Below, one piece after another: positions 20,399-46,971 of a DNA stretch of 64,000 bases (its first letter is position 1; the number at the start of each line of letters is the position of its first letter). The position numbers were made by a program, and so were the translations under genes. This DNA is from Candidatus Poribacteria bacterium (lineage in GTDB: Bacteria > Poribacteria > WGA-4E > WGA-3G). The DNA is taken from contig CBDANF010000003.1 of the NCBI GenBank assembly GCA_965197475.1, positions 704,001 to 768,000 on the forward strand, written 5' to 3'. The notes beneath the pieces were generated by a model. The model was not told the origin of the DNA. It did no database searches and saw nothing but the letters and a program-made list of their open reading frames with translations.

Positions 20399-21502
20399 TT
20401 AGGATCTCAAACGCATCGGTGCAAGGAAACATTTATGTCCATCATCCCCCATAGGTTTAACAATAAGGAAACTAAACTCTCCCGAAAACTCAAGGATTAC
20501 AGATTCCGTTTCAATATGTGTAAAGATTTCTGTTAGTCTATGAGCATCCAAACCGATCCGTACGTTTCCATTACTAGATTCAACAGCGACTGTTTCATGT
20601 GCTTCACCAAGTTCAGGGGTTTCGGTTGAAATTCGAATTTCTTCGGGATCAATCTCTAAACAGATCGCAAAATTTTTCGGATTTGAAAGTAAAGCCACTC
20701 GGCGGGTCGCTCGTAGGATTGATTCCCTTGATACAACCGCCCGACCCTCAGAAAATTCCTGTATAAGCGATTGGTATTTTTGATATTCACCTTCTACCAA
20801 ACGTGTTGTCAAGGTGGCGTTGTTATCGGTAAGAAGAATTTGATTCTTGAGCAGTAAAATCTTAACCTCGGTGGAATTGGCAAAGGTACGCGCAATTTCC
20901 TTGACAGCCTTCAGTGGAACAATAAATTCACTAACATCTTCAGATGTTTTTAGGGGTGAACAATTTGCCAACGCAAGTTTATGTCTATCAGTTGCGACCA
21001 CTTCAGTTCTATCTTCAAGAAGATTGAAAAAAAGCCCGTTCAGCTGGTACTGAAATTCCTCTGTAGATGCCGCAAACGCTGTTTTGTGGATAACAGAGCA
21101 CAAGGTTTCACCATCAATAGTTACACCTTCTCCCTCAGCAGATGGCAGTTGTGGAAAATCTTCATCGGAGAGCCCAATCATTTTGTAAGTACCATCTCCG
21201 CAAGTGAGTTCAACACGGTCATTTGCGGTTGTAACCAAGTTTATCGGCTTATCTCCGGGTAATTCTCGGACGATGTCTGTCAATTTTTTAGCAGAGACCG
21301 TGATAGCCCCTTCTTCCAGGATAGTGCCTACCACTTTAACTCTAATACCGACTTCTAAATCGGTCGCTGCAAATTCAATGTTCCCATCTTGTGCGCGAAT
21401 AAGAACATTTGCGAGAATCGGCAAGGTGTTACGTCCACTTGCTACACCTTGAACTAGTTGTAAGGAATATAAAAGTTCGTCTTTTTCAAAAGTAAGTTCC
21501 AT
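20399..21502 (-). CDS. dnaN: DNA polymerase III beta sliding clamp, divergent paralog (copy B)
   Basis: Full-length clamp (TLPIL.NVL, ATDLEV, DFP.LP, LNG, ATD, PMRL), colinear with the adjacent copy. Confidence 0.9.
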   Translation of the reverse strand: MELTFEKDELLYSLQLVQGVASGRNTLPILANVLIRAQDGNIEFAATDLEVGIRVKVVGTILEEGAITVSAKKLTDIVRELPGDKPINLVTTANDRVELTCGDGTYKMIGLSDEDFPQLPSAEGEGVTIDGETLCSVIHKTAFAASTEEFQYQLNGLFFNLLEDRTEVVATDRHKLALANCSPLKTSEDVSEFIVPLKAVKEIARTFANSTEVKILLLKNQILLTDNNATLTTRLVEGEYQKYQSLIQEFSEGRAVVSRESILRATRRVALLSNPKNFAICLEIDPEEIRISTETPELGEAHETVAVESSNGNVRIGLDAHRLTEIFTHIETESVILEFSGEFSFLIVKPMGDDGHKCFLAPMRLRS

Positions 21503-21732: not shown

Positions 21733-22851
21733 TTAGGATTCTGATGACGAATTTGTTTCTAAGCGCATCGGCATGATGATACAAATGTGTACATCATCAC
21801 CTACAGGTTTTACAACAAGTGGATTCAACTCTCCAGAAAACTCTAAAACCAGAGATTCAGTCTCAATGTGTGCTAAAACCTCCGTCAACAACCGCGCATC
21901 AAAACCGATCCGAACGCTACCGCTGCCAGATTCTACTGCAAGTGTCTCGTGTGCCTCACCATGTTCAGGCGACTTTGCTGAAACCTGAATCTGTTCGGGG
22001 TCTATATCTAAGCAGATCGAAAAATTTTTCGGATTTGAAAGTAAAGCCACTCGCCGCGTAGCACGTAAAATTGATTCCTTCGATACGACCGTACGACCCT
22101 CAGTAGATTCGGGTATGATCGTCTGATATTTCGGATATTCGCCTTCTACCAAACGTGTTGTCAACGTTGCGTTTTCATCCGCAAAAAGAATTTGATTCTT
22201 GACAAGTGAAATTTTTACCTCAGGGGAATCGGCGAAGGTGCGTTCAATCTCCTTGACAGCTTTCAGCGGGACAATGAATCCGCTGATATCTTCAGGTGCC
22301 TTCATGGGAGCACAATGTGCAAGCGCGAGCTGTTTTCCATCAGTTGCGACCACTTCAGTCTTATCTTCAAGAAGGTTGAAAAAGAGCCCGTTCAAAAAGT
22401 ATCGGACCTCCTCTGTAGATGCAGCGAATTCTGTTTTATGGATAACAGAACACAAAGTTTCACCTTCAATCGTTATAGCCTCACTATCAACAGATGGTAG
22501 TTGTGGAAAATCTTCATCGGAGAGTCCAATAATTTTATAAACACCATCTCCGCAAGTGATTTCAATTCGATCGTTTGCAGTTGTAACGAGTTCGATCGTT
22601 TTATCTGGTAATTCTCTAACAATGTCTACCAATTTTTTAGCAGAAACCGTGATGGATCCTTCTTCTTTGATAGTTCCAATGACTTTGACTTTGATGCCGA
22701 CTTCCAGATCGGTCGCTGTACATTCAATGTTCCCGCCCTCGGCACGAATGAGGACGTTTGAAAGAATTGGCAAGGTATTACGTCCACTTGCCACACTCTG
22801 AACTATCTGTAAGGAATATAAAAGTTCATCTTTTTCAAAAGCAAGTTCCAT
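21733..22851 (-). CDS. dnaN: DNA polymerase III beta sliding clamp, canonical-looking copy (copy A)
   Basis: VRYFLNG, ATDG, GEYPKY and IIMPMRL motifs conserved. Confidence 0.95.
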   Translation of the reverse strand: MELAFEKDELLYSLQIVQSVASGRNTLPILSNVLIRAEGGNIECTATDLEVGIKVKVIGTIKEEGSITVSAKKLVDIVRELPDKTIELVTTANDRIEITCGDGVYKIIGLSDEDFPQLPSVDSEAITIEGETLCSVIHKTEFAASTEEVRYFLNGLFFNLLEDKTEVVATDGKQLALAHCAPMKAPEDISGFIVPLKAVKEIERTFADSPEVKISLVKNQILFADENATLTTRLVEGEYPKYQTIIPESTEGRTVVSKESILRATRRVALLSNPKNFSICLDIDPEQIQVSAKSPEHGEAHETLAVESGSGSVRIGFDARLLTEVLAHIETESLVLEFSGELNPLVVKPVGDDVHICIIMPMRLETNSSSES

Positions 22852-23039
22852 TCCAAGAGCTCCTATTTTTATTGTATCAAGTAAATTAATAACGTGAGTT
22901 TGACTTAAACGCTTCGTGAATTAACACCGAATACATGTATGGTTTTCGGCGGGTTGAACAACGTGAAACCTAATGCTTTTCATGCCTACATTTCCCAGAG
23001 CCATTCAGTTTTCGGTTTTTTGCCTGTTTTAGTCGTAAA

Positions 23040-23097
23040 GTCGCGACCTGCGAATCAACGCCAAATGCACTTATTGCATTTGGCGGGTCGCTCCTAC
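23040..23097 (-). repeat. GTAG REP interrupted by a 33-bp micro-hairpin
   Basis: Removing 23052-23084 restores GTAGGAGCGACC-CGCA-GGTCGCGAC. Confidence 0.7.
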
Positions 23098-23161
23098 AGA
23101 GGAGAAACCTTGAGCAGAAGGTAACAACTACCGGAGAATTGAAGGACTCTGTATTTTCACC

Positions 23162-28549: not shown

Positions 28550-29593
28550 CTATGGCATTAATCCTGGTGCTTTCAGACCGTCTGTTTCGTCGTAGCCGAA
28601 CATCAAATTAAGATTTTGCAAAGCAGCTCCAGCCGCACCTTTCCCGAGATTATCAAGTGCTGCCATCGCAACAACACGTTGTGTCCGTTCGTCAACCTCA
28701 ACCCCGACATCACAATAGTTGCTTCCGAGTACTTCTTTAGTTTGCGGATATTCGTCCTTGTCAAGAACACGGATGAACGGTTCGTTTTCGTAAAAAGTGG
28801 CATATATCCCAAGCAAGGTTTCGGTGTCAAGTGGTTGTTTCAGACGTGCGTAGACAGTGCTGAGGATGCCTCGTGTCATCGGAACTAAATGCGGGGTGAA
28901 AGTTACACAAACTGTTTCTCCCGCAACCGCGCTTAACTCCTGTTCAATCTCTGGTGTGTGGCGGTGTATTCCGATGTTGTAAGCAACAACGTTAGATTCA
29001 CGATTCGGATAGTGAGTAGTGTCCTTGGGTTTCGGTCCTGCTCCCGAAATACCTGATTTTGAATCGACAACTATTGATTCTAATTCGATGAGTCTATTGT
29101 TAAGCAGCGGCATCGTGGCAAGGATAGCACTAGTCGGGTAACATCCGGGATTCGCTACGAGTTTAGCTTCTCGGATTTTCTCACGGTAACGTTCTGGCAA
29201 CCCGTACACCGCATTCTGAATAAGTTCGGGACTGGTGTGATCAACGTGGTACCAGTCGCTGTAGGTCTGTGCATCACGGAGACGGTAATCTGCGCTGAAA
29301 TCAACGACACGCAACCCTTGTGCAATAATTTGCGGGGCGTAAGTCATCGCTACTTTGTGCGGTACAGCTAACACAACAACGTCTACCCGGTCTTTAAGTG
29401 AATCAATGTCTAACGGCTCAAATACAAGGTCAATGAAATTGCGAAGATGCGGTAAGACTCGGTCAACGCGCTGCCCTGCGTAGGTTTCGGATGTGGCGAG
29501 TTCCACGCGTAGTCCGCCGGAATGGTGGACCAAAAATCTTACTAATTCGCTGCCGCTATAACCGGATGCACCAACAATTCCGATCTTTGTCAT
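28550..29593 (-). CDS. argC: N-acetyl-gamma-glutamyl-phosphate reductase
   Basis: GASGYSG, VYGLPE, ANPGCYPT, HRH.PEI, PHLVPMTRG, DNLGKGAAG motifs. Confidence 0.97.
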   Translation of the reverse strand: MTKIGIVGASGYSGSELVRFLVHHSGGLRVELATSETYAGQRVDRVLPHLRNFIDLVFEPLDIDSLKDRVDVVVLAVPHKVAMTYAPQIIAQGLRVVDFSADYRLRDAQTYSDWYHVDHTSPELIQNAVYGLPERYREKIREAKLVANPGCYPTSAILATMPLLNNRLIELESIVVDSKSGISGAGPKPKDTTHYPNRESNVVAYNIGIHRHTPEIEQELSAVAGETVCVTFTPHLVPMTRGILSTVYARLKQPLDTETLLGIYATFYENEPFIRVLDKDEYPQTKEVLGSNYCDVGVEVDERTQRVVAMAALDNLGKGAAGAALQNLNLMFGYDETDGLKAPGLMP

Positions 29594-29622
29594 CTTTCTT
29601 ACCTTTGGACATTTTTACCCCT

Positions 29623-29899
29623 ACTAAACTTTGGACAATTTTAGAGTGCTTGTGTGGTAACAGGGGTAATAGAAACACCTTGTACATCAAAATAAGATTT
29701 GTTTATACACATTTCGCCCGCTGGGACTTACTCCGTTAAGGTTATCGTTTTCTATAAACATTCCGTCCTGCTGGGGCTGCTCTTTGCTGCACACGAAATA
29801 CTTTTTTCTGCGAGTTACGAACCTGAACAAAACTTGCAGAAAATAGAAACATATTTGAAAACTCAACATCAAATAGACAAAAATTGTCCTAACTTTAGT
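29623..29899. mobile_element. MITE, ACTAAASTTWGGACAATTT family
   Basis: 19-bp imperfect TIRs; internal CTATAAACATT...GCTGGGGCT repeats; homologous to 46555-46971. Confidence 0.8.
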
Positions 29900-29908
29900 T
29901 TTCCTTAA

Positions 29909-29937
29909 ATAATAGCATGAAATGTCTTGGTTGTCAA
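29909..29937 (-). promoter_or_regulatory. Probable promoter of the argC-lpxB-lpxK operon
   Basis: Minus strand TTGACA, 17-nt spacer, TGcTATTAT. Confidence 0.65.
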
Positions 29938-29956
29938 GATTATACATGAAGTCGTA

Positions 29957-30939
29957 TTGAGTAAAACATAAGGATGTGGTAAAATAGGGAAAAAAGGGTA
30001 TAATTTATGTCCCTTTCTTTCCACTTCAGATACCGCTTTACTTTATGAAAGGTGTTATTATGGCAAACGAGGCTCAAAAATCACCAAAATACAACTGTAT
30101 TCCCAAACAGGTTTCCCGTAAAGATTTCAATCGTTATATCTTACCACATTTAGCGAAACGAGTCAAAGGCCCGAAACCGAAACTCTCCTTGGACAAGATA
30201 TTCAACTATATCCTCTATGTTTTACATACGGGTATTCAATGGGATCAACTCCGAACCCGGCATCCTGAACTCCATTGGTCTAATATCTATAAATGGCATA
30301 ATCGGTGGTCAAAAGATGGCTCGTATCAGAAACTTTTTGAGGCATCAGTGATACACGTGCTTGACACCGACCAACTTGACACCTCTCAACTTCATGGAGA
30401 TGGGTCAAATACCGTCGTGAAAAAAGGGGTGACAGCATCGGTTATTCAGGCCACAAACATCAAAAAGGTGAAAAAGAGTTGACCATCACTGACAATCAGG
30501 GGTTCATCATCGGTCCGATAACCATCAAACCTGTCAACCAACATGGGACAAAGATTTTGCCCGAAGCATTCACCGATCTTATCGCCTTTGCTAATCGTAT
30601 TGGAATGGATCTTAGTGCTTCCGTTCTAACACTGGATTCCGGTTTTGATTCCAAAGAGAATCATAAGATTATCAAACAACACGGGCTGCTCCCGGTGATC
30701 TATCCGAACCGGCGGAATGCCAAAGAACCTATTGTAATTGCCCGTCCGTTCCGGTGGTTTAACAAGAAAATGGACAAAGACCGATATAAAGTGGAACGAA
30801 CTTTTGGTTGGCAAGGGACTTATCGGAAGCTCGCCCTTAGTTATGATAAACTGAAAGAAACCCGTTTAGGTTTTCGTAATTTAGCATATTCAATGATAAA
30901 CTTTCGGAGAACTTTCAATGATTCTTAGCTCTTACTCGC
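29957..30939 (+). mobile_element. IS5-family insertion sequence
   Basis: Imperfect TIRs (GAGTAAAACATAAG vs GAGTAAGAGCTAAG); TA on both flanks; encloses a split DDE transposase. Confidence 0.8.
30045..30928 (+). CDS. IS5-family DDE transposase in two ORFs joined by a -1 frameshift at AAAAAAGGGG (30420-30429)
   Basis: ILYVLHTGIQW and HNRWSKDG; the shifted join reads KKGGDSIGYSGHKHQKG; D(GDGS), D(LDSGF), E(VERTF) triad. Confidence 0.85.
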
Positions 30940-31754
30940 TATGAGTTTTTTATGTCTTGAAAAAGTCCCGAACTTGTCCCAAATTTGACTAATTGTTGCT
31001 TCAGCACCTCCCATTCCTTTTTTTGAGTAGCTTCTATCCGCGTTAGTAGCATTGGAACATCGCTACCTTCTGGATCGTTAAATTCCCGTGCCGGATCGTA
31101 AGTTCGATTAGGTCGTGACCTAATCGGCGATGTACTAAATACAGATAAACTACCAAAGGTAGCCCACGGTCGGTATTGGCTTATTCCAATATAGTGACTC
31201 TTTTTTCTCAAATATTCGTCTAAAGCAATTTCTCTATCAGATTCCCCTCTAAAAATGGGTGAAAGTAAGTTAATAGGAGGTGGGGCTAAGGTGTCAGTAC
31301 CACAAATTATTTGATATTGATTTCGTTTTTCATCATAAGAGGCTAAACGCACAATCTTTTCGATTTGTTCCTCGGTTTCAAGAATGATTTCACCATCAAC
31401 GAATTTTACTCTTATTGAACTGACAGTCGGTTCAATTCTTCCTTTTTTCTCAACAAATTCAACTGTCACTTCGGCATCTTCATTGTTGTATGTGCCAGCA
31501 AACCCAAGTTTAAAGTTTTTCTCTCTTTTTTTACTGTTTCTGACAATATCCTTAAAGGTGCCTAATGAATAAAGATCCGAATTAAAATCTAATTCCCTAT
31601 ATCGTAAATAATCCACTAATACTTGGAAACAAGCGAGCGCAGTCGTCTTGCCGGTACTATTTTCACCAACTAAAAACGTTAGCGGGCGAATTTCAAGTGT
31701 CTGACGTTCTCCGAAACAGCGAACCTCTTCCATTGTAAACTGGGTAATGCTCAT
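30939..31754 (-). pseudogene. Truncated ABC/AAA_21-type ATPase
   Basis: LVGENSTGKT Walker A present; no signature, Walker B or HLHP region; stop codon formed at the IS junction. Confidence 0.7.
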
Positions 31755-46554: not shown

Positions 46555-46971
46555 TACTAAAGTTTGGACAATTTTAGAGTTCTTGTGTCATAACTTAGGT
46601 TGATGGAACACCTTAGGTATTAACTGGATTATACTATACACCTGTCGCCCGTTGGGGCTTTAGACTGAGGCAATAGCCTTGTTCTATACACCTATCGCCC
46701 GCGGGGCTAATATTTGATCCTCTATCATTTATATTTTCTGCGATTTTGCTGACTGAAAGAGCTCGTAGAAAAATACTTTTGGGCAGCCCCAGCCAAATCA
46801 ACGCCAAATGCGCGTGTGGCATTTGGCGGGGCGGAATGTTTATAGAAAAGTGGTGTTCCAGGATACGGAGACCCAGCGGGGCGACAAGTGTCCAGCATTT
46901 TTTACTTTATACACCTAATAGTCTCTCAGCAAGTCCACTTGAACAGCGTGTAAATTGTCCAAACTATAGTA
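46555..46971. mobile_element. MITE, ACTAAAGTTTGGACAATTT family (long form)
   Basis: TIRs TACTAAAGTTTGGACAATTT / AAATTGTCCAAACTATAGTA; two forward and two reverse CTATA...GGGGCT repeats. Confidence 0.8.

Follow-up and report, generated by a model that had tools for sequence, protein, structure and literature searches.

A 34-nt, apparently mobile hairpin element lands beside G-runs and within REP repeats of sponge-symbiont Poribacteria

Two repeat hairpins from unrelated families, interrupted by the same short sequence, raise the question of whether this sequence is a mobile element in its own right and, if so, what determines where it lands. Both hairpins lie in the window, i.e. the whole 64,000-nt stretch of DNA that was analysed, which corresponds to C3:704001-768000 of a sponge-symbiont Poribacteria genome (G000, hereafter the source genome; 5.70-Mb assembly, three contigs, 43.5% G+C). 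A first-pass annotation had described two copies with a shared leader and 9-bp stem and with differing loops, and both copies are real (Table 1). The unit, here called element E, is a 33-34-nt sequence with asymmetric ends and a single hairpin, composed of a YR-AATCAAC leader, a 9-bp stem and a 7-nt loop with the consensus GCGTATG. No match to AATCAAC-GCCAAATGC-N7-GCATTTGGC was obtained in 100 dinucleotide shuffles of the window. Folded as single-stranded DNA, the region of copy 1 (23036-23100) forms nested hairpins (-19.2 kcal/mol, z -6.5); the fold of the copy 2 region is less distinctive (z -1.7) because its leader CCAAAT has the 3' arm as an alternative pairing partner. The accompanying claim that the element follows a GC and ends in GC applies to the two window copies and fails genome-wide, where only 4-6 of 49 dereplicated copies have this feature.

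Table 1. Element E and its host repeats in the window (positions are those of the window).
Feature	Position	Strand	Remarks
E copy 1, 34 nt	23051..23084	+	CG + AATCAAC + GCCAAATGC + loop ACTTATT + GCATTTGGC; core from 23053
E copy 2, 34 nt	46794..46827	+	CA + AATCAAC + GCCAAATGC + loop GCGTGTG + GCATTTGGC; core from 46796
Copy 1 host REP, 5' arm GCGACC	23043..23048	+	pairs with 23086-23091
Copy 1 host REP, 3' arm GGTCGC + TCCTAC	23086..23097	+	read on the minus strand, GTAG tag of a GTAG-type REP (GTAGGAGCGACC); CTAC at 23094-23097
Copy 1 host, MITE-like repeat (~122 nt + 34-nt insert)	22996..23151	.	multi-copy in the source genome and congeners
Copy 2 host, 5' side GCAGCCCC + loop AGC	46783..46793	+	GCCCC at 46786-46790, AGC at 46791-46793
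Copy 2 host, 3' arm GGGGC + conserved tail GGAATGTTTATAG	46828..46849	+	GGGGC at 46828-46832
Second, uninterrupted hairpin of the composite host of copy 2	46872..46883	+	ACCC-AGC-GGGG variant

The two hosts are repeats that also exist without the element. For the host of copy 1, whose REP sequence GTAGGAGCGACC has 20 occurrences on one strand of the source genome and 16 on the other, eight empty paralogues of the form GCGACC-GRGA-GGTCGC are listed, and matches to the surrounding MITE-like repeat often consist of two halves that lie only a few nt apart (query 247-297 and 337-402 of 247-402). The family of the copy 2 host, GCAGCCCC-AGC-GGGGCGRAATGT, has 55 matches, 52 of them empty and three filled, and mostly forms doublets with a second GCCCC-AGC-GGGGC hairpin about 45 nt downstream; the uninterrupted hairpin that the annotation had pointed out in this region is a real variant of that downstream partner. 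Both insertion sites are intergenic, copy 1 lying between a dnaN-like gene and a DUF6785 gene and copy 2 between a Laminin_G_3 gene and a rhodanese gene. The orthologous spacer of copy 1 measures 69-95 nt in the relatives G016, G015 and G010 versus ~268-296 nt in the source genome, and that of copy 2 measures 22 nt in G006 versus 614 nt; in each case the whole repeat block is missing. Other features of the window and genome were recorded alongside. Two tandem ORFs on the minus strand at 20399-21502 and 21733-22851 (367 and 372 aa) share ~79% DNA identity, the second being a full DNA polymerase III beta clamp with several tandem matches to its end in relatives, which suggests a dnaN paralogue array. 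A ~1-kb repeat at ~29936-30947, with copies 93-98% identical on contigs C2 and C3, is probably an insertion sequence; very high contig depth was seen at 29526-29800. Contigs C2 and C3 also share a 6.4-kb stretch at 99% identity.

Element E is widespread in the source genome, which holds about 60-100 copies in total. Exact-stem copies are found at 12 loci (24 matches, since either strand presents an identical stem), a fuzzy search returned 75 matches and a structural search 97, versus 11 in a reversed-genome control. If only the leader and loop are searched and pairing is not required, 107 distinct copies present at least five of nine Watson-Crick pairs; a looser first census with 322 matches consisted mostly of noise and was discarded. 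Only two of 59 copies fall inside a crude ORF mask spanning 82% of the genome, and with the figures of the structural search this makes E a short intergenic high-copy palindrome, a trait that it shares with REPs. Its position relative to genes followed no consistent pattern at the loci examined, and its orientation is mixed (11+/10- on C2, 16+/22- on C3), with a GC skew too weak to place the replichores. Among individual loci, a fully palindromic copy (AATTAAC...GTTAATT) is located ~430 nt upstream of a dnaA gene (C2:1171430-1172764) on the 1.5-Mb contig C2, and the same degenerate copy follows each of three tandem ~2.4-kb units (C3:993246, 995615 and 997978), each of which encodes a WD40 protein of ~690 aa.

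The distribution of E is confined to one lineage. Among 101 sampled Poribacteria genomes, searched with the E pattern at up to one mismatch and with a reversed-pattern control that gave zero in every genome, the element is present in 28 of 30 congeners, with counts from 0 to 156 (G006 156, G040 129, G047 86, G002 83, G001 and G038 0). The sister genus carries 1-6 copies in 15 of its 32 genomes, and at the same threshold none was detected in the 34 sampled genomes of other Poribacteria families. A search against one genome per prokaryote species yielded at least 114 loci, and those listed all belong to metagenome-assembled genomes titled Poribacteria or, for a few, 'uncultured bacterium'. This distribution, together with the 64 occurrences of HIP1 in the source genome, which are close to chance expectation (an estimate) and hence no enrichment, speaks against the cyanobacterial framing initially given to the element.

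That E is or was a mobile insert is very probable. For 25 of 59 copies, both flanks recur abutting each other elsewhere in the source genome (our own count from the list), and comparison with empty paralogues defines a precise insert of 34 nt (YR + 32 nt) in most host families and of 33 nt in two; copy 2, for example, adds exactly 34 nt between AGC and GGGGC. The corresponding empty-site junctions read GCCCC-AGC|GGGGC, GTCCC-TAC|GGGAC, GCGAGGCAC|GGGGACCTCGC, CATCCAGC|GGGGTAGAAC and, at the apex of a REPIN, CGTGTC|GGGTTTCGC. Precise and constant boundaries are maintained in at least ten unrelated flank families, and hosts contain E in both orientations: copy 1 is reversed with respect to C3:3070312 when read on the GTAG strand, and copy 2 with respect to C2:1381992, relative to the CTATAAACAT tail. 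The element also occurs once in the loop of another E (C3:3847541) and as a tandem pair (C2:84532/84566). No target-site duplication accompanies it, as 2-4-nt repeats between the two flanks are found in 0-4 of 49 contexts, approximately the shuffled mean. In addition, the congener G038 possesses the host REPs (17 and 4 copies) and no E at up to one mismatch, so the element is not an integral part of its hosts. The empty hosts, both orientations and self-nesting thus bear out the proposal of a discrete micro-element in unrelated host repeats, and with eight listed empty hairpins for the first host and 52 for the second the existence of the empty hosts that it presupposed is established. A read check, which relied on Logan contigs from three runs (two samples, a single study), yielded no filled/empty difference at an orthologous site. 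Copy 1 is spanned in its filled form, without any difference, by a 720-nt contig of X1. Contig joints 23047>23086 (+GGGA) and 23048>23086 (+GAGA), whose sides extend over only 22-53 nt, match the loops of paralogous empty hosts; their interpretation as empty alleles of the copy 1 locus was rejected, since the paralogous empty hosts fit.

Not every copy needs to reflect a separate insertion. Many arose through duplication of filled hosts, as seen in higher-order REP arrays at a Y1 locus of G040 (L139, described below) and in a 353-nt stretch that the host of copy 2 shares with a filled paralogue, and the number of insertion events is therefore smaller than the number of copies. Taken further, these duplications would allow E to be a loop or linker variant without mobility of its own, a 'mosaic motif' as in BIMEs or long REP loops, that is spread by composite REP/MITE duplication or gene conversion. 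REP loops whose inner parts are self-complementary over as much as 27 bp have been reported (PMC3733652). In L139 the filled REPs are repeated within higher-order tandem units, each of the two window copies has filled paralogues with which it shares a longer host, and a repeated flank is present in 28 of 49 contexts of the source genome versus 119 of 400 random sites. This explanation is nevertheless improbable: the other 21 of 49 contexts have no repeated flank, the same boundaries recur across the unrelated flank families, one host family contains both orientations, E lies inside E and G038 has the hosts without the element.

For the landing site, 111 dereplicated flank contexts (49 in the source genome and 62 in other genomes) were compared. 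Base +1 is G in 41/49 and 53/62 contexts (94/111), usually as part of GGG, with G at +2 and +3 in 31 and 33 of 49 contexts in the source genome and in 46 and 47 of 62 in the others. Base -1 is a purine in 47/49 and 62/62 contexts, and base -2 a pyrimidine in 43/49 and 53/62. Empty sites already carry the GGG, and the site is accordingly read as N|GGG. The first-pass annotation had instead proposed that the element targets hairpin structure rather than sequence, a statement that missed this cue. In such a scenario E would recognise extruded hairpins of any sequence and insert into their loops, and there is some signal in this direction: six or more unrelated families of hairpin hosts have E in their loop, in every case at the junction of loop and 3' arm, and the junction lies in a hairpin loop in 14 of the 49 contexts of the source genome, compared with control rates of 12.4% for noncoding C|GGG sites and 12.7% for noncoding sites taken at random. 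Helix-associated junctions (at the start of an arm or inside a helix) amount to 19/49 and 31/62, versus 25% of noncoding Y|GGG sites. In the other genomes, however, only 9/62 junctions are in loops (23/111 in total), which is about the control rate, no helix is found at 30/49 and 31/62 sites, and the downstream GGG is kept alike in structured and unstructured contexts, coinciding in the hosts with the start of a stem arm. By the annotation's own criterion, the position of most copies outside loops counts against targeting by structure alone. Even the enrichment that is seen is overstated, because contexts from related genomes are not independent. Targeting by structure is therefore unlikely.

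Two further counts refine this comparison. A strict flank test, which demands a perfect contiguous stem touching E, misses imperfect stems and was replaced by the fold-based tests given above, detected stems of 5 bp or more in 6/49 contexts versus 3.5% and 3.4% of controls and stems of 4 bp or more in 11/49 versus 11-12%. Insertion directly after GTAG is observed in 7/111 contexts, compared to 0.73% of noncoding |GGG sites. There is some enrichment of E in structured or repeat DNA, and the sequence cue is much stronger. As REP stems in these genomes have the form CCC...GGG, landing 5' of GGG amounts to landing at the junction of loop and 3' arm or of tag and 5' arm.

The hairpin of E itself is conserved in structure. 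The stem covaries, with base pair 4 being GC in 41, AT in 28 and TA in eight copies, and a subfamily with the stem GCAGCGTGC/GCACGCTGC retains the leader and loop unchanged; the loop and the stem ends are better conserved than the middle of the stem. Mismatches show no strand asymmetry (G:T 57 vs A:C 61) and thus no sign of selection on one RNA strand. With 231 of 963 stem cells deviating from Watson-Crick pairing, inserted copies seem simply to decay. In the congeners G018, G033, G036, G059 and G010, the commonest variant has the 3' arm GCATTTGTC, which creates a C:T mismatch at base pair 2 of the stem and recalls the stem mismatch that TnpAREP of E. coli is reported to require in its own REP. 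The source genome also encodes leaderless sister hairpins that share the loop (GCGTATG and variants) and the stem ends, e.g. at C2:216159, C3:1231517 and C3:2371955. About 24 of them read GCAGCATGC...GCATGCTGC followed by ATGAGG and about 12 read GCAGAATAC...GTATTCTGC followed by ATGATT; altogether, 76 hairpins of the E-loop design were counted versus none in the reversed-genome control, and only 30 of the 76 have the AATCAAC leader. The hairpin module may be the common recognised part of E and these sister hairpins.

Conservation of this kind could also indicate that the host maintains E mainly for a function under selection, as a hairpin that binds a protein or acts in regulation, and that its mobility is incidental. 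The stability of loop and stem ends relative to the mid-stem agrees with such a role, as do a compensated A:T/G:C pair difference between two filled paralogues of the copy 2 host, found against a background that is ~15% diverged, and the palindromic copy upstream of a dnaA gene. A range from 0 to 156 copies among congeners, the decay of many copies and their inconsistent placement relative to genes at the loci examined render a selected function very improbable as the main explanation. Spread through RNA, by retro-type insertion of a small hairpin RNA, has reportedly been proposed for the SDR elements of cyanobacteria and would account for the stem covariation, which shows that the hairpin matters for propagation, and for the fixed polarity of E; the symmetric mismatches and the lack of a poly-A, a terminator-like end or an Rfam match in E make it very doubtful here.

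Several other classes were considered and set aside. A MITE of a DDE transposon was rejected on account of the asymmetric ends, the missing duplication and a trailing GTTGATT-type arm in only eight census entries (four loci, both strands), and readings as a CRISPR repeat or an integron attC-like site were rejected as the copies are dispersed and not arrayed. Rfam gave no match to E, its sole hit being a chance-level CRISPR-DR27 match outside the element (23121-23145, E-value 0.91). An autonomous partner was sought among the genes between close E copies, which encode a metallo-beta-lactamase-fold protein, an AIR carboxylase, an RraA-like protein, DnaA, an IS1595-type transposase and WD40 proteins; none of these is plausible.

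The hosts of E are genuine REPs that flank genes for RAYT (Y1/HUH) transposases. At C3:968177-968539 of the source genome (L128), a RAYT-like Y1 gene has three tandem GTAG-GTTGGGTT-N10-AACCCAAC units upstream and one inverted unit downstream, and this locus is a classical REPtron in a Poribacteria genome. At L139 (G040:C21:2456548-2459892), long arrays of REPs of the form CTATAAACATAGC-GTCCC-TAC-GGGAC surround a 162-aa Y1 gene, and seven REP units within the higher-order tandem units are filled with E at TAC|GGGAC. This REP is present in 760 copies in G040, 82 in G006, 14 in G047, four in G038 and none in G001. G047 presents a RAYT gene followed by a GTAG REP array, with E located in an upstream REP between the tag and the G-rich arm. 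The nesting announced as a 'third tier' is real in this sense, the hosts being REPs that flank RAYT genes. Across 26 Y1 loci of five genomes (G000, G006, G040, G047 and G038), E is found on both sides of a Y1 gene in none and in the neighbourhood of four, where it sits in or beside host REPs or 1.4 kb off; for both Y1 genes of the source genome, the census is empty of E out to 20 kb. The source genome also has an IS200-type TnpA gene at C3:1868465-1868800. Y1 counts do not track E counts, with G038 having five Y1 matches and no E.

The explanation that we tentatively prefer as a whole, at less than even confidence, is a non-autonomous mobile element with entry on the GGG side and movement as single-stranded DNA, provided in trans by a Y1 HUH enzyme. 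According to this proposal, E is a discrete DNA element that has multiplied in one Poribacteria lineage and that enters directly 5' of a G-run (N|GGG), in fixed polarity to the cue and with no target duplication. It would move in single-stranded form, and cutting and rejoining would be carried out by a Y1 HUH enzyme of the RAYT or IS200 type, which would read the hairpin and 5' leader of E as such enzymes read REPs and IS200/IS605 ends. Given CCC...GGG stems and GTAG|GGG junctions, E often comes to lie where the loop of a REP hairpin meets its 3' arm, or at the 5' foot of the hairpin, and the resulting nesting is RAYT > REP > E > E. We infer Y1 HUH chemistry from the exact ends, the absence of duplication, the asymmetry, the structure-conserved hairpin with its conserved loop, the one-sided motif in fixed polarity and the association with REPs; the assignment of the moving enzyme to the Y1/HUH class, taken by itself, is possible rather than probable. 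A precedent for such activity is TnpAREP of E. coli, for which strand exchange and cleavage both in linkers and to either side of a REP are reported (PMC3333891; PMC8266576). It is rather unlikely, although conceivable, that E is a hyperparasite of the REP/RAYT system, a 34-nt ssDNA element with a single hairpin and with ends set by the enzyme, which borrows RAYT-type HUH enzymes and lands at single-strand/duplex junctions (N|GGG) of extruded REP hairpins; if so, it would constitute a true third tier (RAYT > REP > E) and be among the smallest elements with demonstrable insertion boundaries.

The spread of REP-like micro-repeats is poorly understood, and E offers exact boundaries, many empty sites, a clear cue and a copy number that varies from 0 to 156 among congeners, a combination that makes its insertion directly testable with short oligonucleotides and candidate Y1 enzymes. 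For uncultured sponge symbionts, intergenic DNA that is layered with nested repeats also bears on genome assembly and comparison. A literature search, judged partly by title, returned no published description of REP-type repeats in Poribacteria.

Among known systems, REPs and REPINs resemble E in being intergenic, high-copy hairpins of 20-40 nt with a conserved single-stranded 5' tag and a copy number that varies between relatives; single-stranded HUH chemistry would leave no target duplication, and RAYT loci with REP arrays exist in these genomes. In contrast to REPs, E begins with YR-AATCAAC and lacks a GTAG or CGTC tag, GTAG being that of its hosts, and it brackets no RAYT gene (no REPtron at the 26 Y1 loci) and inserts into REPs instead. 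IS200/IS605 elements and their miniature derivatives are comparable with respect to asymmetric ends, a hairpin that would be recognised by its structure, a one-sided short fixed motif in fixed polarity and the absence of target duplication; they differ in carrying a subterminal hairpin at each end, whereas E has one hairpin, which on the GGG side lies too close to the target for a guide sequence to fit between them. IS1397/ISKpn1-type elements are complete insertion sequences that encode a transposase and duplicate their target. They share with E the use of REPs, which can serve as landing pads for such insertions or as partners of other short motifs, as in BIMEs (works cited in PMC3116915; loop variants, PMC3733652); E is only 34 nt long and in 21/49 contexts lies outside any repeat. 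Another near likeness is to the SDR elements of heterocystous cyanobacteria, which are said to measure 21-27 nt. SDR1-8 are reportedly likewise dispersed units of very small size that sit within other repeats and within copies of themselves, are restricted to one lineage and show compensatory hairpin changes. E is set apart from SDRs by description, being a Poribacteria element of 33-34 nt whose cue is N|GGG next to REP stems; the landing site of SDRs is HIP1 (GCG|ATCGC), as known from papers citing the original work (Elhai et al., 2008, Genome Res 18:1484). E ranks among the smallest DNA elements that appear to be mobile, and it belongs with the very small dispersed hairpin repeats, i.e. REPs and cyanobacterial SDRs, within which its landing rule is unusually well defined and its three-level nesting clear.
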